DNA from: a virus
Lineage: Duplodnaviria > Heunggongvirae > Uroviricota > Caudoviricetes
Length of the DNA: 64,000 nucleotides
Strand: one strand, 5' to 3'
Virus record (IMG/VR): IMGVR_UViG_3300045988_162656
Positions 1,390-54,547 of the stretch are shown one piece after another. The position numbers and the translations under genes are program-made. A model generated the notes under the pieces. That model searched no databases and was not told the origin of the DNA. It saw nothing but the letters and a program-made list of their open reading frames with translations. The stretch's first letter is position 1. Every line of letters begins with the position of its first letter.

Positions 1390-1779
1390 CTACATCACAG
1401 GACAATCATCAAACTCGCCACTTCTTGCGTCGTTGATAATGTGAGTGATCACACCAAACACGGCATTGCTGCCCGTGCATCCATCGTCATCCTTTGGCAA
1501 TGCTTCCTTCTTACCGGTTCTTAAATCCTCCAGATGCTGACGTGGAGACTTCCGGTATCTTTTTACGCGATATTCCCCATCCAGAGCGCATACAAGCAGA
1601 GAACCATCAACCGGGGTAAGTGAGGAATCAACCACCAGCAATGCACCCTGTAATATTCCCTCACGATGATGACTATCAGCTGCTCTCATGAAGTAGGTCG
1701 CTGAAGGATGTCTAATTATCTGCTGATCAAGAGAAATACGGCTCTCAGCATAATCCGCCGCAGGAGAAGGGAAGCCCAT
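1390..1779 (-). CDS. UmuD-like S24 peptidase-domain protein (orphan, no umuC partner in window)
   Basis: 129 aa; GFPSPAADYAESRISLDQQIIRHPSATYF closely parallels UmuD; Ser and Lys of the catalytic dyad region retained (DSH ... VKRYRK). Confidence 0.6.
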   Translation of the reverse strand: MGFPSPAADYAESRISLDQQIIRHPSATYFMRAADSHHREGILQGALLVVDSSLTPVDGSLLVCALDGEYRVKRYRKSPRQHLEDLRTGKKEALPKDDDGCTGSNAVFGVITHIINDARSGEFDDCPVM

Positions 1780-44000: not shown

Positions 44001-44566
44001 TGGTCGTAGAATGGGGTAGGGTGCGGATAAACCACACTATAGAAGTTGTCTTTTCCACCCGCTGTAATCAGTGTGCTTATGATTTTTGCAAAATCGTTGC
44101 GTTGGAACACGCTACCGATGTCGGAAGTGAGCAGGATGATGTTGCCTTTGGCATATGTAGAAACCAACTGTTCGAGCGAGAGACGCGGTACAAAGTAGAA
44201 CTGTTCTCGTGTGTTGGCCACCGTCATTAGTTCGCAGATGTCGCGATATCCTTGCTCATTTTTAATTAGAGCGGTAAACGAGTAGTTACGTCCTCGCTCT
44301 AATGATTCCATACATCCCTTAGACTCTTTAGCAATTTTAGCCCGGTACTCGTATGTGGGATCATCAACAATGTTTAGTTTCACACCACAAATAACCGCCA
44401 TGTCGTCACCAGCGGCACGTTGTAGTGGAATAACACTCGCAATATTCATGCTATCTGCCGAAATTACAGCGGTGTAGCCAGCTTCTCTGGCAATCTTCAC
44501 CGCGTTTTCTGCTTTTAGAGCCGACTCCCCAAGAGAGAAGTCAGTTCGAACCATCAGAGCCTTCAT
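41048..44566 (-). CDS. dnaE: DNA polymerase III alpha-type (DnaE-like, PHP domain) replicative polymerase
   Basis: 1172 aa; N-terminal PHP domain, polymerase core motifs, length typical of DnaE. Confidence 0.8.
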   Translation of the reverse strand: MKALMVRTDFSLGESALKAENAVKIAREAGYTAVISADSMNIASVIPLQRAAGDDMAVICGVKLNIVDDPTYEYRAKIAKESKGCMESLERGRNYSFTALIKNEQGYRDICELMTVANTREQFYFVPRLSLEQLVSTYAKGNIILLTSDIGSVFQRNDFAKIISTLITAGGKDNFYSVVYPHPTPFYDQINVRAMKVASALKIEPVAFYPAYYESIDDADIKDIAHMVTNNIKIDQPHRLRIPHQRDNAVNGRRHLLEALKTFSVRMDVPVTAAMASTTQDTIIDACTWRWHELPPALPKMADDEPATLMKLAVAGLRKRLTTKEFGYTPPASENRVYVERLKYEMDTLTRLGFCGYFLMVRDLMNHSRETGIPVGPGRGSSAGSLVAWCIGITNVDPIRHGLLFERFINPERLDLPDADLDFSQARRHEVIEYLNERYGEDYVAGIPNFTYLGAASALRDTARIYGVESADMAVSKELKNVEDDSLPLEELREQLASLDKYATKYPDAFNAACKLQSLMRGFGRHAAGMIVAGVPLTERTPVERRGDARCIAFDKRYCEAMGLIKLDVLGLATLDLLDSAKRYIKENTGEDINLDAISLEDRKVLDGFAAGYTQGVFQLESGPMRKLLKDLGGGIEPMSFKTVVATTALFRPGPIQSGMLDDYVSVAKGFMTPESLHPVLDELTAETNGVILYQEQTMNATRLLAGFTMAEADGVRKAIGKKDMEKMKSMGEKFIVQAQAGWIDVELEDGTTQRIHRAEHFKCEDGTLKTVEEALEYGAKLPINAVRVTASHPGLSEMKAKEIWTAFEKNGAYQFNKSHSVAYSLISYQSMWLKTHYPAEFFAAALTILGEDKHQGLVKDALTYGIRVLPPDVNVSSNRIEIRTLEDGSQVLYAPFSAVKGCSENGCQAIMRAREKVGGKFESLAQFEEAVEKRACNSRVRESLQKVGAFASIEPGSLPATDPERLRDQAELMGNLVIDAVKASRPFEMNPKRSAEINVLMTRMAAEMGLGDELIRPSIGIKPKIMIILDNANGNDARTGYFMENGYDDFKAKLLTAGDLRMGDLYVTGVCKKVKDKEKDYTKDEIGQFTDFIREEINLVRPTYVLTCGSRATALFNNKNKPSDLVGRKEYLPDLDVTVFYGFNPNILYFRPEEGERLEAILADVAETIKT

Positions 44567-48286: not shown

Positions 48287-48499
48287 TTAACAGGTTCTGA
48301 CGGCTAAAGAGCCAGAGCCGGTATTGATAAGCGTGAAGCGTTTGTTATTAAGTAGGAATATAAAGGCTGTTGCGTCATGCATACCAACCTGAATCTGCTC
48401 ATTTGGTAATTCGGTGAGAATGTCAGCTACACATTCATCAGCTAATTTTTCAACGTGTCCGATCTCAAGAGTGATTAGGCTGGAAATAGTTGTTTTCAT
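48287..48499 (-). CDS. hypothetical protein
   Basis: 70-aa ORF. Confidence 0.3.
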   Translation of the reverse strand: MKTTISSLITLEIGHVEKLADECVADILTELPNEQIQVGMHDATAFIFLLNNKRFTLINTGSGSLAVRTC

Positions 48500-48746
48500 T
48501 CAATCAATCCATTCTAACTTAAAGTATGGTAGGGAGTACTATTAAATCTTATATCATAATTGAACTTATCTATATCATATCTGAGTTAGTTTTGTTACAT
48601 GTTATTAGTCGTTTTTCTCCATTAATGAATGCTGATTGGTTAATATTTGTGCCTGTAGAAAAAATGATTATATCTTTACAACCCTAACCTTTGATGTAAT
48701 ATCGGTAAGCACTTACCAGAGAGTTTAACGCGCAAAGGTCGCAATA

Positions 48747-49133
48747 ATGTCTGACAAAAACATTGAATTTATAGAAAGTCGCTATGCTGCTTTTATCGCA
48801 GGGCTGATTGAATCCTCACCTATGAGTCAGGCCCAAATAGCCAGACTTATTGGTTATAAAAATGCCAACAACCTTTCTTTAATTAAAAGTGGTAAAATTC
48901 CTTTGCCTATCGATAAGGTTCGTCCGCTGGCGTTGGCGCTGGGTATTGAGCCAAGTCGTCTTATGATGATGGTGCTGGAAGAACGCCAACCTGAACTCGC
49001 AGCATTTTTATACAAAGAAGGCACCGCTCCTCTTAACGAGGACGAAAAACAGGTTCTTGCTGCATATAACGAGCGATTCGGTAAAGAGAAAGGCGCATCA
49101 CAAAAGGTTGTTGAGGCCATAAAGTCTCTATGA
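48747..49133 (+). CDS. XRE-family helix-turn-helix transcriptional regulator
   Basis: HTH segment SQAQIARLIGYKNANNLSLIKSG; convergent with integrase; AT-rich promoter region upstream. Confidence 0.55.
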   Translation: MSDKNIEFIESRYAAFIAGLIESSPMSQAQIARLIGYKNANNLSLIKSGKIPLPIDKVRPLALALGIEPSRLMMMVLEERQPELAAFLYKEGTAPLNEDEKQVLAAYNERFGKEKGASQKVVEAIKSL

Positions 49134-50231
49134 AAAATTTAGACGAATAAGCTCTGTTGATAGACGATCTCCCTTGAATTTGTGGTCAATTTCGTCTAAA
49201 TCCGGTTGCTCTACGATTGATGCGATGTACGTTGAGAAACTTTCTAAGGCGTCTCGCATCTCGTCCATATAATCGTGCCGGTCGTAGACCCGATCTATCC
49301 CCTCAAGACTGTGGTTCATTATTTTGCGTGATACCTCCTGGCTTATACCTAATGCTGGGAAGTAACTACGCGCAGTACGACGCAAATCTCGAGGTGTAAA
49401 TGGCGCAAGCTCCATCAGTTCTGGTCGTTCCAGAATACGACGTAATGCCTGGGCTATTGCCACTTTAGACATAGGAAGGTCTTTCCCGATTTTTTTATTC
49501 GAAGGCACGAGCCACTGGCTGTCTTTACCGTATTCGAACAACTCTTCAATGCATGTGCGCATTAATGTGCTTAAAGGCAGCGAATGCTCACGTGCTGACT
49601 TGTTTCTCTTGCCTTGATTCCAAACTCCACGCTTAAGATTGAACTCACTTTTTTTAGCCCTCAGTACTTCGTCAGGTCGTCTTGCTGATACAAGACACAG
49701 CCTGGCCGCCCATTTTGTACCAGCGCACACATTGAAGTAGTCCCATATATTCCAGAACACCCATACCTCTGCGTCGGTCAGCTTCCGCTCGCGAGGTGTG
49801 GGCTTTGCGCCACCGGCAACTTTGTTTAGTGACATATCGTTTAACGGTGACACGTCTATCATCCCCTGGAAGGCGCACCAGCTAAGGAACTGCTTCATCA
49901 GAGAGAAAACGCGGCGGCCCATAACAATTTTGCCATCCAATATTAGAGGGTTGACCAGTTGGTTAACCATGAACCTATTAATGTCACTTACTTTTACATC
50001 AGCAATGTGCGGCAAAACATGTATCAAAATACAATGAACAGCGATCTCTGGCCGACGTCTGGTTATCAGCAGAGATAAGCGAGTGAATAACATGAATGCG
50101 TCCGAGAATATCATGTTATTGTTGATCTGTGAGATCATAATGGCCTGCATTTGAGATGCTCTTTCGAGATACTCAATTGCCTCTTTTGAGGTGTTTTCTG
50201 CTGCGCGTGCTCTGTCAAAGCTATTTTTCAT
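49128..50231 (-). CDS. tyrosine site-specific recombinase / integrase
   Basis: C-terminal catalytic region with TPRDLRRT and HSLEGIDRVYDRHDY motifs. Confidence 0.8.
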   Translation of the reverse strand: MKNSFDRARAAENTSKEAIEYLERASQMQAIMISQINNNMIFSDAFMLFTRLSLLITRRRPEIAVHCILIHVLPHIADVKVSDINRFMVNQLVNPLILDGKIVMGRRVFSLMKQFLSWCAFQGMIDVSPLNDMSLNKVAGGAKPTPRERKLTDAEVWVFWNIWDYFNVCAGTKWAARLCLVSARRPDEVLRAKKSEFNLKRGVWNQGKRNKSAREHSLPLSTLMRTCIEELFEYGKDSQWLVPSNKKIGKDLPMSKVAIAQALRRILERPELMELAPFTPRDLRRTARSYFPALGISQEVSRKIMNHSLEGIDRVYDRHDYMDEMRDALESFSTYIASIVEQPDLDEIDHKFKGDRLSTELIRLNFS

Positions 50232-50438
50232 TTATTGGCATTCACCTAGTTACGCTGATCACCTGTATAAGTAACCAGTATATTAGGCATTGATTCTTTT
50301 GGAATCAAGCTAAAATCTTTCATGCGGAAAATGATTCCATACCTAAAGAGTATGGAATCATTTTTTTCTGTAGAGCTAGTTTTAAATATTTGATTCGATA
50401 TGAAGCCAGGCAATTTCATGCCTGGCTGTTACTTTGTG

Positions 50439-52352
50439 TTAGGTTGGGTTGTTGATGCTAATGGTAAGTGTTTCGATAGCAAGATCATGAGTTTGGTTGT
50501 TTGTTATATCTGTTAAAACAAAAGCCTCATCACCAAGAGCAATATTGTCTTTAACCAGCTTGAATTTACTCCCCGCCTTGCCATCGAGAACGGGAATTAC
50601 AGTTCCTGTGCCTTTCTCATATTGCAACTCAAGAGTGTGCCAATTGTTGTCGTAGTCACCATATGAGTCTATCTGAACATTTCGATTATTGCCTGTCCTG
50701 TGCATCATAATGTTCAACTTGCCTCCAATTGTTTGAAGGAAGAAGTTAGCCAGAAACAGGCTCCCAGTACCGTCGAATGATATATCGTCAGCAACAGGTT
50801 TACTGGTTTTGTAATATATACCAAAGCCAAACTTAGCTTTTTTTGGATCAGGGTTTCCAGATAATTTAAACTTACAAAGTAATTTACCTCCATTCTCAAG
50901 AAGAGTCTGTGCTATGTCAGTAGCTTTACTGATCGTCCAAGTTTCGTTGGAAACCGCTTTAGTTAAAGCAATTGCTTTTCCGTTTTCAACTGACTGAATA
51001 TTTGCACCAGTTACAGTCCATCCTTGTTCAGTAGCGACATCACCACCAGCTCCAGTTAAGGAAATAACCGTTCGCGGGGTTGGAGTTGTGACAATGTTGT
51101 CATTTTTAGGTTGAGTAGGTTGTTCTTGTTTAATAATCTCACCTGTAACGCCATTCACAAAAGCAGATGATTTCGCTGAATGTGCAAGCAGCGCAGTTGC
51201 GAGACGATCAGATATTATTCCGCGTCGCTGCCATGAACCAAAATGACTCTCTCTACTCTCGGAAGTCCATGTTTTATTATCCTTGCGATGACCGGAACCA
51301 TAATAGCCAATAGATGTGATGTCTGGATCATCTGTAGGGCTATTGGTTAATACGTTATTATCATTCTCATCTTTCATGAATGGAACGAAATAAATTGCTT
51401 GTGAGGTTTTTCCCTTATAACCACCATAAACAATTTCGTACTGTTTTGGATATTTGTTTTTCCACCAGTGGGTCGTATCGCCACAAATCCAGGGTACATT
51501 TGCAGCACTTCCGAAAACACATTGTGCGTCGTATTGAGATAGCTCTTTTCTGAAACCTTCGACCATCTTGAGGAACAGTTCGTTATGCTGCGAGTACTTG
51601 CCAGTTGCCAAATCAGCTTCGCCTTGCATCCAGACAACACCAAGAAATACATTCTTTTTGTTTTTACTTAAGGCCGCTTTTGTTCTGGCTACAATATCCT
51701 TATACAAAGGAGTATTTAATCCCCATTTTAAAGATGATTCGATTGCACCTGACTCTTCATAATATTGGCCTTCAGAGCCTGTAACAGTGAAACCAGAACC
51801 ACCTCTTCCGCAAGGAACGAGCAAAATACCTGCGTTTGCTGGAATGAATGGTAATAGTTTTTTGCCAATGTGTAGTCCCTGACCAACACATCCATATTCA
51901 GAGTCGTTTGCTTTTGGATGCTTGAATTTAGTCATGTCTTGTACATCATGAAGACAGTGATCAGCGGGAATTATTTCATTGTACTTACAGGCAAAACCAC
52001 CAGGTTTAATATTGCTGCGTCGAGCTAACTGTTTTACGCGAGGATGTGGCCGATCAAAAGTTTTTGGCATAGGCAGTCCTTCGCCGTATGACATTGAGTT
52101 GGATTGACCTGCGATAGTAACTACATAATAATAGTCAGGCTCTTCATCTTCATTTGATACCGGTGTGGGCAATTGTGATAAATCACCAGATCGCACAATT
52201 GCTTGATTGTACGCATTTGGTCCGCCCTTACTTGGTTCAACAATGTTTGGTGACTCGAAAGGTTGCCAACCCTCTGCGATTTTCTTCGCAAGTTTTTCTC
52301 TAAGCTCTTTGCTTGATGATGCTGACAAAATATCATAGTCAATGAATGACAT
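50439..52352 (-). CDS. SGNH/SASA-family (sialate O-acetylesterase-like) esterase domain protein with C-terminal beta-rich domain
   Basis: GQSN motif (IAGQSNSMSYG) near N-terminus; 637 aa. Confidence 0.55.
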   Translation of the reverse strand: MSFIDYDILSASSSKELREKLAKKIAEGWQPFESPNIVEPSKGGPNAYNQAIVRSGDLSQLPTPVSNEDEEPDYYYVVTIAGQSNSMSYGEGLPMPKTFDRPHPRVKQLARRSNIKPGGFACKYNEIIPADHCLHDVQDMTKFKHPKANDSEYGCVGQGLHIGKKLLPFIPANAGILLVPCGRGGSGFTVTGSEGQYYEESGAIESSLKWGLNTPLYKDIVARTKAALSKNKKNVFLGVVWMQGEADLATGKYSQHNELFLKMVEGFRKELSQYDAQCVFGSAANVPWICGDTTHWWKNKYPKQYEIVYGGYKGKTSQAIYFVPFMKDENDNNVLTNSPTDDPDITSIGYYGSGHRKDNKTWTSESRESHFGSWQRRGIISDRLATALLAHSAKSSAFVNGVTGEIIKQEQPTQPKNDNIVTTPTPRTVISLTGAGGDVATEQGWTVTGANIQSVENGKAIALTKAVSNETWTISKATDIAQTLLENGGKLLCKFKLSGNPDPKKAKFGFGIYYKTSKPVADDISFDGTGSLFLANFFLQTIGGKLNIMMHRTGNNRNVQIDSYGDYDNNWHTLELQYEKGTGTVIPVLDGKAGSKFKLVKDNIALGDEAFVLTDITNNQTHDLAIETLTISINNPT

Positions 52353-52577
52353 AATCGTTACTCCTTTAACGATAAACTTTAGCTAAAATCGATACGATTT
52401 TAGCAGTTAAAAAACGACAATAAAATATAAGAGTAATGTATGAAAGAACAATAAAAATTGCGTAAATGGATATGTGTAAAATATGTGGAATTTCACACAC
52501 AGCGTTGAGCGGTCTGGTTTATGTTAGCGGAGTCTTAATCGAGTTGATTAAAAGGCCAAACCGCTCAACGCTGTGTC

Positions 52578-52664
52578 TGGCGGAGAGTAATGGAATCGAA
52601 CCATCATCGCTTGCGCAATGGGACGGTTTTCAAGACCGCTTGAGCACCATGCTCCCTACTCTCC
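52578..52664 (-). tRNA. tRNA-Ser (anticodon TGA), type II with long variable arm
   Basis: hand-folded: acceptor GGAGAGT/ACTCTCC, anticodon loop CTTGAAA, T-loop TTCGATT, 3' CCA encoded. Confidence 0.8.
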
Positions 52665-52888
52665 GGCCGTTGTGGTGGCCGGTACTGAATCTCCGGCATA
52701 CGGTGCAGCCAATTAGGACTACGGACGATCACCGCTCGCGAAAGGGAAGATTTGCGGCCGCATTTCCCTAACATCCAAGAAAGCTATCGCATTAGTCTGC
52801 GAATCCACCACAACGGTAAGATCACTACCTTTCGACCAGTCATTGTGCACATGAACGACGATTAACCGTAATGATCTTATCGTTGTAT

Positions 52889-52964
52889 TGGTGCCGGTTA
52901 GCGGACTCGAACCGCTGACATCCTGCTTACAAGGCAGGCGCTCTACCAACTGAGCTAAACCGGC
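52889..52964 (-). tRNA. tRNA-Thr (anticodon TGT)
   Basis: acceptor GCCGGTT/AACCGGC, D-arm AGCTCAGTTGGTAGAGC, anticodon loop CTTGTAA, T-loop TTCGAGT, CCA encoded. Confidence 0.85.
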
Positions 52965-52968
52965 AATT

Positions 52969-53055
52969 TGGTGGGGAGTGATGGAGTCGAACCACCCGAG
53001 TTGCAATGACAGTAGATTTACAGTCTACCCAGCTGCCCCTACGGACTAACTCCCC
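52969..53055 (-). tRNA. tRNA-Tyr (anticodon GTA), type II
   Basis: acceptor GGGGAGT/ACTCCCC, anticodon loop ACTGTAAATCT, long variable arm, CCA encoded. Confidence 0.8.
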
Positions 53056-53060
53056 TAAAT

Positions 53061-53135
53061 TGGCGATGGTGGGTGGATTCGAACCACCGACCAGTTGGTT
53101 AACAGCCAACTGCTCTACCGCTGAGCTACACCATC
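53061..53135 (-). tRNA. tRNA-Asn (anticodon GTT)
   Basis: acceptor GATGGTG/CACCATC, anticodon loop CTGTTAA, T-loop TTCGAAT, CCA encoded. Confidence 0.85.
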
Positions 53136-53895
53136 AATTCAGCACTGCCAGTATTTATTACTCAACAGTGCCAATCGCGGCGGTGTTAGTTTCTGCCAGG
53201 AAACGCACCGCTACTTGCACTTTTTCGTTAGTGTCAGACGCTTTCGACTTCTCTCAATAGAAGGCAAAATCTTTAAGTAGATGATGTTTCTGAGGACAGC
53301 ACCTACTTTGTAATTTATACAATGTGATGTATGGAATCATTTGTTGTGGAAAAGTGGTTAAACCTACACAACAATCCTGTCTTCACAACGTTGAGGCCAC
53401 TACTCCGATTGAATGTTTGCCCAACATGTTACATATCAACGCTCGCCGGTATCTCTGTGAATAGAACCTTAGAATTGATAAAAATGTAATGGCCTCAACG
53501 TTGTGTGCTGGCTAACCATACCAGCCGGGCTACGTCGCCGCTTTTTAACCCAGTATAAACGACATAATTGAACAAAATGACGTAACAGAATGGGCGGTCA
53601 GTGGCTAAGAATCCGGGAGTCATATGGAGTTGAAAATATACCGACCGCCCATTCTGTTACTTCATCGGAGGGAACATGAGTGTTCCCTCCTGCGTTCTGC
53701 AATCACACTCGCTCAGTGTGTCCCATTTCGGTAACGAGGCTGGAAACTGACCTCGCTGGTGTTTGGCTTATTAGGCTACTGCCAGATAGACTTCTTCGTT
53801 TGCACTTGTATTTAAGTTCAAACAGTCGCATCTCAACGAAAACAAAGTCATCTTATACACAAAGGATAAGTAAGTAAATACTTATCGATATGTTT

Positions 53896-54186
53896 TTATT
53901 CGGTTGTGACTTTTTTGATCAAGGCCACTCTACGACTAGGTGTTCTTGTGATGGTGGCAGTGAATCGTTTCGCTTGGATAGTAATGGTTTCGTTCTCCTT
54001 AAGTTGCCCGTAGCGAGTTTCCACCAGGGTGCCAAGACGCCACAGACCATCATCGATACGTTTATGACTAGCAAATTTAATCAGCAACAGTTTTACGACT
54101 AACTGACCTACGTAAAAGGCGAATGCGACTCCGACCGCTAAGAAATAGGTGGCCAACCACCAGTCCCAAGAAGTTAAATTGCTCAT
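53896..54186 (-). CDS. small membrane protein
   Basis: 96 aa, one N-terminal TM helix; ATGA-coupled. Confidence 0.35.
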   Translation of the reverse strand: MSNLTSWDWWLATYFLAVGVAFAFYVGQLVVKLLLIKFASHKRIDDGLWRLGTLVETRYGQLKENETITIQAKRFTATITRTPSRRVALIKKVTTE

Positions 54187-54335
54187 TTTCTAACCTTTGT
54201 TTCATGAACTACCCGATACACACGCTTTCCGATGCACAGTGTTTTGGTTTTAAGTTCCTGCTTAATTAAATCACGACAGATGCCGAAGCCGATAAGGAAG
54301 CCACCAATAAAAGCTAATGAGATGTATGGAATCAT
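54183..54335 (-). CDS. small membrane protein (50 aa; below ORF-track cut-off)
   Basis: hand translation MIPYISLAFIGGFLIGFGICRDLIKQELKTKTLCIGKRVYRVVHETKVRK; stop/start overlaps on both sides. Confidence 0.3.
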   Translation of the reverse strand: MIPYISLAFIGGFLIGFGICRDLIKQELKTKTLCIGKRVYRVVHETKVRK

Positions 54336-54547
54336 TTTAACACTCCTGATTCTACTAATTGCTGTAGCAATACTTTCCCTTTATCAGTTAACTGGTAGTT
54401 GGCTGAGCACCACGTTTCCGAAATGTTTGCAACCAACCCTAAACGCTCTAAATTAGCTCGCGTTTTAGGCTTCCAGTACTGAGGGAACTCCGGCCACTTA
54501 CTTATTTCATGAAGCGTTTCTTTCTCCCGTTTACTTAATACGATCAT
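54332..54547 (-). CDS. hypothetical protein
   Basis: 71 aa, coupled downstream of ligase gene. Confidence 0.35.
   Translation of the reverse strand: MIVLSKREKETLHEISKWPEFPQYWKPKTRANLERLGLVANISETWCSANYQLTDKGKVLLQQLVESGVLK

Follow-up and report, generated by a model that had tools for sequence, protein, structure and literature searches.

A tyrosine recombinase near the tRNA genes of an SSU5-type phage-plasmid: a probable Cre/loxP-like backbone module beside a cargo slot with a NanS-p-type esterase

Does a tyrosine recombinase gene lying close to a tRNA cluster mark an inserted island, or does it serve the element that carries it? The question was raised by positions 48287-52352 of a 64,000-nucleotide stretch of the Caudoviricetes record IMGVR_UViG_3300045988_162656 in IMG/VR, which is called the window throughout. 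A sequence-only reading of this block had proposed a nested island or, alternatively, a lysogeny module. The four open reading frames (ORFs) on which it was built, encoding a 70-residue protein, an XRE-type regulator, the recombinase and a 637-residue esterase, were all found in place, and its interpretation as a whole was partly supported. The block probably consists of a recombinase/XRE module of a phage-plasmid backbone, acting in Cre/loxP-like multimer resolution and limited by the SOS system, and of a cargo slot that holds a NanS-p-type esterase.

Backbone synteny and sequence identity to known members assigned the window to a phage-plasmid of the SSU5/pHCM2/pMT1 type. A 5.3-kb region matched plasmids of E. 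coli and Shigella sonnei (~109 kb) with 96-100% coverage and 98-99.5% identity. The near-identical records included p09EL50 of E. coli O104:H4 strain 2009EL-2050, S. sonnei plasmids and GenBank entries under the name “Escherichia phage CMS-2020a”. Plasmid p09EL50 has been described as resembling pLF82, pHCM2, and pMT1 (PMC3486847). The shared backbone was ~93-95% identical to that of the phage-plasmid Cyrano (pLF82) and ~95% identical to that of many E. coli plasmids. Cyrano forms siphovirus particles and replicates at a copy number of ~5.5 per cell; ciprofloxacin induces it 39-fold (PMC9928086). The genes flanking the block encoded DnaE, a CobS-like AAA protein, CobT, and an ATP-dependent ligase. 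The recombinase, hereafter Int, had homologues with 85% identity in Y. pestis plasmids of pMT1 size (~101 kb) and with 84% identity in ~107-kb Salmonella plasmids. The window differed from the SSU5/pHCM2/pMT1/pLF82 supergroup in the esterase, which replaced a glutaredoxin-centred cargo, in the spacer CTAAAGA of the palindrome described below, and in the layout of the tRNA cluster.

BLAST alignment of seven relatives to positions 46-57 kb of the window revealed where the block was constant and where it varied. In the five relatives with other cargo, the ~95% homology ended at 50362-50364 and resumed exactly at 52498. The variable cargo slot therefore occupied 50365-52497 (2,133 bp, 39.7% G+C), with its edges at 50364/50365 and 52497/52498. 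Here it contained only the esterase gene together with its downstream hairpin and AT-rich upstream DNA. At the same place, the relatives carried a glutaredoxin with a 432-residue protein, a glutaredoxin with Gp49, AbiGi, YafO, or the hypothetical protein CYRAN_43. Within the block this slot was the sole variable part, and 48287-50364 was backbone. The gene order CobT, 70-residue ORF, XRE, and Int was kept in all of the E. coli-type relatives compared. The same order was found in Klebsiella pJN2-26 and in elements of Moellerella, Xenorhabdus, Providencia, Nissabacter, Serratia, and Yersinia, and it was only partly kept in a 33.8-kb Photorhabdus plasmid. For the SSU5 supergroup, Pfeifer et al. 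also list tyrosine recombinases as persistent genes (PMC7969092). The 70-residue ORF (48287-48499, minus strand), which matched PHROG 2627 of unknown function, was divergent from the XRE gene and was the first gene of a leftward CobT/AAA/DnaE string. Its product showed 46-84% identity where it was detected by tblastn and 31% identity in the Serratia locus.

An island or prophage-like module inserted by Int at the tRNA cluster, covering 48.2-52.4 kb, would place an integrase-family gene ~2.3 kb from the tRNA genes, as was observed. The esterase cassette was indeed lower in G+C than the window (39.7% versus 45.5%) and was absent from most relatives. However, Int, XRE, and the 70-residue ORF were syntenic in all relatives, and the variable part excluded int. 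The prediction that relatives would lack the whole block thus held for the esterase cassette only. The four tRNA genes were intact and were the element's own. The direct repeat of a tRNA 3' end that was expected to flank the block was not found either: no copy of the 5' or 3' end of any of the tRNAs (16-24 nt, up to 2-3 mismatches) occurred elsewhere in the 64-kb window, and a repeat search found no repeats bracketing 48287-52352. The only notable repeat was a 15-nt exact direct repeat, GACCAGTTGGTTAAC, at 49953-49967 and 53089-53103, with one copy in the int coding region (codons VNQLV) and the other in the anticodon arm of tRNA-Asn. As an attachment site (att) it would bisect int, and it was judged to be a chance match. 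An island at this place is thus extremely improbable.

The int gene (49128-50231, minus strand) encoded a protein of 367 residues that matched the Pfam family Phage_integrase with E 1e-9. Its family was tight (at least 44% identity) and was found only on plasmids and phage-plasmids of Enterobacterales, with homologues on 939 PLSDB plasmids including those of Y. pestis (85%) and Salmonella (84%). In 5,426 complete E. coli genomes, the int region was present at 254 places in 252 genomes; all of these places were plasmid-borne and none was chromosomal. Because the element was never found integrated, Int is not a chromosomal integrase in practice. An alignment of 30 sequences with identities down to 42% showed that the candidate catalytic residues R185, K211, and R284 and the candidate nucleophile Y316 were invariant, and that H307 was kept in at least 90% of the sequences. 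Since a sequence search of the PDB gave no match at E ≤ 0.01, a fold search was used. The AlphaFold2 model (mean predicted local distance difference test, pLDDT, 82.7) showed an all-helical N-terminal half followed by the catalytic domain. Its best PDB matches by Foldseek were lambda Int (1z1b, E 2.6e-7, covering the core-binding domain and the catalytic domain), Tn1549 Int, Xer, IntI, and Cre. Neither PF13356 nor any other arm-binding domain was present in the family. As modelled, Int is a “simple” tyrosine recombinase with core-binding and catalytic domains and without an arm-binding domain. The closest relatives outside the family were P4-type integrases (26-33% identity) carrying the arm-binding domain PF13356, and a weak match to the NCBIfam domain PRK09692 pointed the same way. 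P4/CP4-57-type integrases combine PF13356 with integration at tRNA genes, whereas the family of the window lacked PF13356, att repeats, and chromosomal copies.

If Int does not integrate the element, where would it act? A perfect 12-7-12 palindrome, ATGATTCCATAC-CTAAAGA-GTATGGAATCAT, was located at 50331-50361, ~100 bp upstream of int, and is the candidate lox-like site. When 50328-50364 was counted, the palindrome became 15-7-15 (AAAATGATTCCATAC-CTAAAGA-GTATGGAATCATTTT), 97 bp upstream of the int ATG, and it formed the exact left edge of the variable slot. The E. coli relatives L002-L006 had identical arms around the spacer ATAGTAG. In Klebsiella, the arms were unchanged around the spacer CTACCAA while the surrounding intergenic DNA had diverged. 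With the spacer left free, a pattern scan of IMG/VR recovered the exact arms from 101 stretches. At all 106 loci with the Int gene inside the fetched DNA, counting relatives fetched earlier, the palindrome preceded a gene for an Int homologue (57-100% identity) by 45-101 bp, and ten different AT-rich spacers tracked the Int lineage. A similar scan (exact arms, any spacer) of 185,579 species, each represented by one genome, found the palindrome in just seven loci, all beside Int on plasmid-size contigs, and no free chromosomal target (attB).

Loci fetched by Int homology alone gave the same picture, with the palindrome present in 79 of 80. The only locus that had none within 300 nt was L196 (IMGVR_UViG_3300045988_154041), in which a foreign insertion at ~1100-1500 split the LexA-type box that lies immediately upstream of int. 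More distant Int homologues (44-49% identity) also had a 12-7-12 palindrome upstream, both arms of which had changed together at two positions, giving (A/G)TGACTCCAGAC; this second arm class was ATGACTCCAGAC. These homologues included those of non-phage megaplasmids of Pantoea, Rahnella, and Erwinia, where the neighbouring genes were unrelated and encoded TonB-dependent receptors, PagP, chemotaxis proteins, and Qnr. Taken together, a 12-7-12 palindrome was located 44-108 bp upstream of int in the 79 close loci, in all nine distant loci checked, and in one further locus with an Int of 58% identity. Only int travelled with the palindrome, and no other candidate site travelled with int. As judged from the sequences, the conserved arms, their symmetric co-variation, and the free 7-bp centre are the look of a tyrosine-recombinase core site and are unlike a terminator hairpin. 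In the literature nothing relevant was found on the arm sequences or on a resolution system of SSU5, pHCM2, or pMT1, most subscription journals lying outside the coverage.

The possibility that the palindrome is a bidirectional intrinsic terminator, insulating int from cargo transcription, was considered. In the window the 12-15-bp stem that it would form had T runs on both sides and lay between convergent/divergent units. However, lineages whose Int proteins were 57-100% identical had the very same arm sequence and differed in the loop, the stem was A+T-rich with four G/C per 12-nt arm, and the flanking T runs were not conserved. Moreover, the same 12-mer recurred as single copies that could not form hairpins. 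A terminator is therefore very improbable.

These single copies were three isolated exact half-sites AATGATTCCATAC. The first (53329-53341, minus strand; extended as ...ATCACAT) was ~195 bp upstream of tRNA-Asn, the second (54324-54336, minus strand) overlapped the start codon of a 50-residue ORF (MIPYISL...), and the third (44301-44313, plus strand) was oppositely oriented and fell within the 5' part of dnaE. Two of the three extended to ATC(A/T)CAT. No near-matches with 1-2 mismatches to the half-site were found, and inspection by eye at 7- or 8-bp spacing gave no convincing degenerate partner arm beside the isolated copies. Their position and orientation were kept in E. coli, in Klebsiella, and in the lineage with 57-59% Int identity. 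The 108-kb Cyrano genome contained only five copies of the 12-mer, namely the homologues of the three half-sites and the two arms of the palindrome, all within 9 kb; the idea of an operator dispersed over the whole genome was rejected on this count. The isolated half-sites may be Int-binding control sites.

A further explanation makes the palindrome a regulatory operator only, for example for repression of the int promoter by Int itself; Int would then act as a recombinase at another place or have lost that activity. The palindrome was 20 bp upstream of the putative -35 element of int in the window, its distance from the ATG was only ~45 bp in the lineage with 57-59% Int identity, and isolated conserved half-sites near other gene starts resemble dispersed operators more than recombination sites. 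On the other hand, 12-bp inverted arms around a freely varying 7-bp spacer are those of a canonical core site and are too long for a typical helix-turn-helix (HTH) operator. The invariance of the catalytic residues, including the Tyr nucleophile, over the 30 aligned sequences argues for retained catalysis, and no other candidate site accompanied int. We regard the operator-only explanation as rather unlikely.

Between the palindrome and the int ATG, a LexA-type box, CTGTATAAGTAACCAG, was found at 50263-50278 (CTG-N10-CAG, 32-47 bp upstream of the ATG), and the relatives had boxes of the form CTGT-N8-ACAG. A CTG-N10-CAG box was located at most 80 nt from the int ATG in 79 of the 80 loci fetched by Int homology, in 13 sequence variants. 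Directly upstream of the box, a weak putative int promoter at 50280-50308 (minus strand; -35 TTGATT, 17-nt spacer, -10 TAATAT) was read by eye; it agreed with the consensus at 8 of 12 positions and was below the threshold of the promoter scan. The list of genes expressed in Cyrano lysogens does not contain int (PMC9928086). Because of this and of the conserved LexA box, expression of int is likely to be limited by LexA. The whole 108 kb of Cyrano contained only two CTGT-N8-ACAG boxes with an AT-rich centre, one before int and the other before an S24/UmuD-like gene. The window likewise had a near-consensus LexA box, TACTGTTCATTTACACAGTA (CTG at 1798), just upstream of a 129-residue S24/UmuD-like ORF (1390-1779, minus strand). 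The Cyrano counterpart of this box was at 89277, upstream of CYRAN_98, which is annotated as “LexA-like peptidase S24”.

In the proposed mechanism, two Int monomers would bind the 12-7-12 palindrome. A plasmid dimer would carry two palindromes as direct repeats (the asymmetric spacer defines their orientation), and recombining these would restore monomers, as Cre does at loxP in P1. Since both copies in a dimer are always identical, drift of the spacer between lineages would be tolerated. Basal expression of int would be enough during normal growth, and the SOS response, in which homologous recombination makes more multimers, would raise it. The slot between the palindrome and the hairpin behind tRNA-Ser is a hotspot in which unrelated genes replace one another.

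This arrangement was similar to Cre/loxP of P1, which is also a simple tyrosine recombinase of an extrachromosomal phage-plasmid with the target adjoining its gene and for which multimer resolution is expected; the analogues Dre/rox, VCre/VloxP, and Vika/vox belong to the same comparison. Targets of this type have two inverted 12-13-bp arms and an asymmetric 7-8-bp spacer, and the 12-7-12 site of the window was alike. In contrast, Int showed no detectable sequence similarity to Cre, and the fold match to Cre (E 0.016 or weaker) was below those to lambda Int, Tn1549 Int, and Xer. The window also differed from Cre/loxP in having a 7-bp rather than an 8-bp spacer, an Arg in place of the second catalytic His, a LexA box, and isolated half-sites. 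The recombinase and its palindrome apparently form an undescribed member of the Cre/lox kind of self-contained module.

The layout of int, LexA box, site, and variable genes was also that of intI/attI, and an integron-like capture, in which SOS-induced Int would insert circular cargo at the palindrome, had to be weighed. In near-identical Int lineages, at least nine different sequences started 1-20 nt from the same right arm. Such a sharp edge is equally expected where a constrained palindrome lies beside unconstrained DNA. Pairwise comparison of the cargo of five relatives revealed no second site and no attC-like repeat at the far edge of the slot or at the junctions of sub-modules; the internal junctions were placed inside the 3' end of the glutaredoxin gene and ahead of a 130-bp right end that was shared. 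The cargo genes were in both orientations, and those inspected ended in their own hairpins. Compared with the integron platform, which likewise joins a tyrosine recombinase and LexA box to an adjoining recombination-type site and variable genes, the window had no attC-like sites or cassettes, its site was a perfect palindrome, and Int was related to IntI by fold only. Capture of this kind is quite improbable.

The XRE-type HTH regulator (128 residues, 48747-49133, plus strand) matched PHROG 8, “transcriptional regulator”, with E 7e-12. The convergence of int on this gene, which the sequence-only reading had pointed out, was borne out, with an overlap of 6 nt between the two ends. The XRE gene was always convergent with int and was conserved beside it down to 38-49% identity, although the regulator diverged faster than Int (98%, then 59-69%, then 38-53%). 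An S24 cleavage domain was absent from the protein. Its orthologue in Cyrano, CYRAN_45, carries the annotation “putative repressor”, and its expression in lysogens is 10 times the local background (PMC9928086). Homology to this protein makes an immunity or maintenance repressor a plausible role of the regulator. Of the alternatives offered earlier, it was thus the lysogeny or maintenance module that held, while the nested island failed against a backbone that was syntenic in every relative and had no chromosomal copies.

The AT-rich DNA noted on either side of the two convergent genes was confirmed at 48500-48746 (30.8% G+C) and 50232-50438 (34.8%), compared with 45.5% in the window. The former is a divergent control region that faces the 70-residue ORF. 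It contained a sigma-70-like promoter for XRE found by the promoter scan (TTTACA-16-TAATAT, 48675-48702) and, just after it, the palindrome GGTAAGCACTTACC at 48704-48717. Both were shared by E. coli and Klebsiella despite divergence of the XRE protein to 59% identity, and the palindrome, which was conserved across lineages, may be an operator or a hairpin in the 5'-untranslated region. The direct repeats TATATCATA were found in the same region at 48550-48563 and 48571-48584, 21 bp apart. A scan for terminator-like sites found none between the overlapping ends of int and XRE, so transcription of int induced by SOS would run antisense through XRE.

The Photorhabdus plasmid with partly conserved gene order, L206 (CP177137.1, 33.8 kb), was a Rep3/ParA/TacAT plasmid that kept Int, an XRE-like gene, and a 76-residue ORF. 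Its palindrome was imperfect, CTGACTCCAGAT-TTTATAG-GTCTGGAATCAA, and no phage genes were seen in the 6-kb stretch examined. This trio may be a plasmid-maintenance unit that survived the reduction of a phage-plasmid.

Could the module do more than resolve dimers? Read jointly, the observations might describe an undescribed, widespread lox-like system of Y. pestis plasmids of pMT1 size, Salmonella plasmids of pHCM2 size, SSU5-like phage-plasmids of E. coli and Klebsiella, and megaplasmids of Pantoea, Erwinia, and Rahnella that combines SOS/antisense induction, control through half-sites, and turnover of cargo. We consider this doubtful, although a modest chance is left to it. In its SOS step, which is speculative, antisense transcription from int into a regulator gene whose product has no cleavage domain could couple DNA damage to prophage induction. 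In its cargo step, recombination at the palindromes of co-resident elements could drive the turnover of the slot. If this were true, the different spacers found in nature, together with the two classes of arms, would provide ready-made orthogonal recombinase/site pairs.

The gene in the slot encoded a NanS-p-family sialate O-acetylesterase of 637 residues (50439-52352, minus strand). Pfam analysis gave DUF1737 (PF08410, residues 6-54), SASA (PF03629), and DUF6645 (PF20350), and the full length matched PHROG 143 with E 2e-270. The SGNH/SASA catalytic domain spanned residues ~67-389 and a lectin-like jelly-roll domain residues ~441-634. The catalytic domain was similar to E. coli NanS (3PT5, E 6e-116 over residues 67-389). 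The GQSN motif of the SASA domain, recognized at first reading, occupied residues 82-85, and the C-terminal domain, described there as β-rich, was homologous to the NanS-p jelly-roll 6YP6 (E 5e-26 over residues 441-634). An alignment with 933W and five other homologues showed that S84 (GQSN), G184, Q243/E245/D247 (QGE-D), and H370 (SHF) were invariant. Three of the four proposed sugar-binding aromatic residues were kept as aromatics. The protein shared its three-domain architecture and SGNH catalytic blocks with the group of the NanS-p proteins of Shiga toxin (Stx) and lambdoid phages (933W ST933Wp42, phi24B gp84; 6YP6) and chromosomal NanS/YjhS (3PT5).

The esterase was 44-50% identical end to end to the NanS-p of Stx phages (45.5% for 933W by tblastn). 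Its protein cluster had 127 members and the source name Shigella sonnei. The nearest relative outside the cluster (88% identity) was in the same slot of another SSU5-like element with a different spacer and junction, and every other relative was at most 57% identical. By these identities, the esterase is a deep branch of the NanS-p family; both the divergent member and its vehicle are new. The gene lay outside a lambdoid late region, in the cargo slot of an SSU5-type phage-plasmid beside the tRNAs. In contrast, the lambdoid genes are downstream of stx in the late operon, as in 933W, where the nanS-p-type gene is between stx and the lysis genes. The other phage records with homologues were all Stx phages or other phages of E. 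coli and Shigella. Among the 5,426 complete E. coli genomes the cassette was present in only four, on plasmids in each case, and two of these were O104:H4. A terminator-like hairpin with a 9-bp G+C-rich stem (50404-50427, minus strand) was located just downstream of the stop codon as part of the cassette.

The sequence-only reading had suggested that an esterase of this type could modify surface glycans; by homology, the first candidates are the 9-O-acetylated sialic acids of the host, on which NanS and NanS-p act. As the esterase had no signal peptide, its action probably follows lysis by the phage or takes place on virions. It would likely remove 9-O-acetyl groups from host sialic acids, for example those of gut mucins, at one of these stages. 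The timing is also touched by CYRAN_43 (6502-7056 of L003), the slot gene beside the palindrome in Cyrano, which is transcribed in lysogens at 723 times the local background (PMC9928086); the slot can hence be very highly expressed in lysogeny.

Alternatively, the esterase could be a virion-borne, receptor-modifying enzyme that acts on bacterial surface glycans, such as the O104 O antigen, rather than one that lets the lysogen feed on mucin. In phi24B, DUF1737 of NanS-p anchors the processed protein on the capsid hexons (bioRxiv 10.64898/2026.04.10.717836). Two of the four genomes with the cassette were O104:H4, and the O104 O antigen contains sialic acid (PMC9631793, PMC7685785). However, the source name of the protein cluster and most of the near-identical plasmids were those of S. 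sonnei. The O antigen of S. sonnei is not known to contain sialic acid. The sialic acid residue of O104 is 7,9-di-O-acetylated. In addition, no DUF1737 paralogue, which would hint at a native capsid-decoration partner, was found in the backbone, no other sign tied this domain to an SSU5-type capsid, and DUF1737 was only 34.5% identical to that of 933W. O antigens with sialic acid, that of O104 among them, are a possible but not the preferred substrate, and a virion-borne, receptor-modifying role is unlikely. Deacetylation of host sialic acids is the reading we keep for this enzyme.

Several results weigh against the reading of the block as a dimer-resolution module with a NanS-p cargo. From the comparisons, an operator bound by Int would look no different from a recombination site, and the three exactly conserved isolated half-sites are unaccounted for by a simple lox-like model. 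The position of the second catalytic His of tyrosine recombinases was taken by an Arg, R281, which was invariant throughout the family in the 30-sequence alignment. LexA control of a dimer resolvase is unusual; the LexA box of the window was one position off CTGT-N8-ACAG, and the box was absent from the distant Int homologues. The HTH matches of the XRE protein were under the Pfam curated cut-offs (18.9 bits against 30.2 for HTH_19), and its role as a repressor comes from the annotation and expression of the orthologue. For the esterase, identity to 933W was 65% in the SASA domain and only 34.5% and 29% in DUF1737 and the C-terminal domain, respectively, and with such low values the substrate range and virion binding could differ. 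The promoter scan found no minus-strand site above its threshold upstream of the esterase gene.

For this locus, an integrase beside tRNA genes was part of a phage-plasmid maintenance region, and pipelines that call islands or lysogeny integrases from such neighbourhoods will mislead. The recombinase/palindrome module was present on hundreds of clinically relevant plasmids of E. coli, Shigella, Klebsiella, Salmonella, and Y. pestis. If it resolves multimers, it would aid the stable inheritance of these plasmids and might be used as an orthogonal tool for genome engineering. NanS-p-type esterases have so far been tied to Stx and lambdoid prophages; a gene of this type on a phage-plasmid of O104:H4 and S. 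sonnei widens the vehicles by which access to O-acetylated sialic acids could spread among gut pathogens.

The right edge of the slot was formed by a 24-38-24 inverted repeat of the backbone (52494-52579, minus strand), which abutted the 3' end of tRNA-Ser. The predicted RNA hairpin had a 21-bp stem and was very stable (-46.8 kcal/mol, z -9.35). It was conserved in the relatives compared, had no canonical T tail and is a possible processing site or terminator. The tRNA cluster contained complete genes for tRNA-Ser (TGA, 52578-52664), tRNA-Thr (TGT, 52889-52964), tRNA-Tyr (GTA, 52969-53055), and tRNA-Asn (GTT, 53061-53135), all on the minus strand. Four tRNA genes beside the esterase had been reported correctly. 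The esterase had also been placed upstream of them; as both were on the minus strand, the tRNAs were transcriptionally upstream of the esterase. An Rfam scan of 47.5-55 kb returned these four tRNAs only, with no match for the long hairpin or for the 224-bp non-tRNA insert between tRNA-Ser and tRNA-Thr (52665-52888). This insert was moderately structured (z -2.3) and was absent from Cyrano, which also had no tRNA-Tyr; p09EL50 had a different segment, ~265 bp longer, and the tRNA cluster was therefore a second small variable region. To the tRNA-Thr/Asn part (52889-53135), the tRNA clusters of two P1-like phage-plasmids, P7 and D6, were ~93% identical, and those of other coliphages, N4-like ones among them, were 78-91% identical; these identities suggest a shared tRNA module that moves between unrelated phages. 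Farther along, a 96-residue ORF (53896-54186, minus strand) is named “C-type natriuretic protein” in several RefSeq plasmid records; the name is almost certainly an artefact, given to a small membrane protein.

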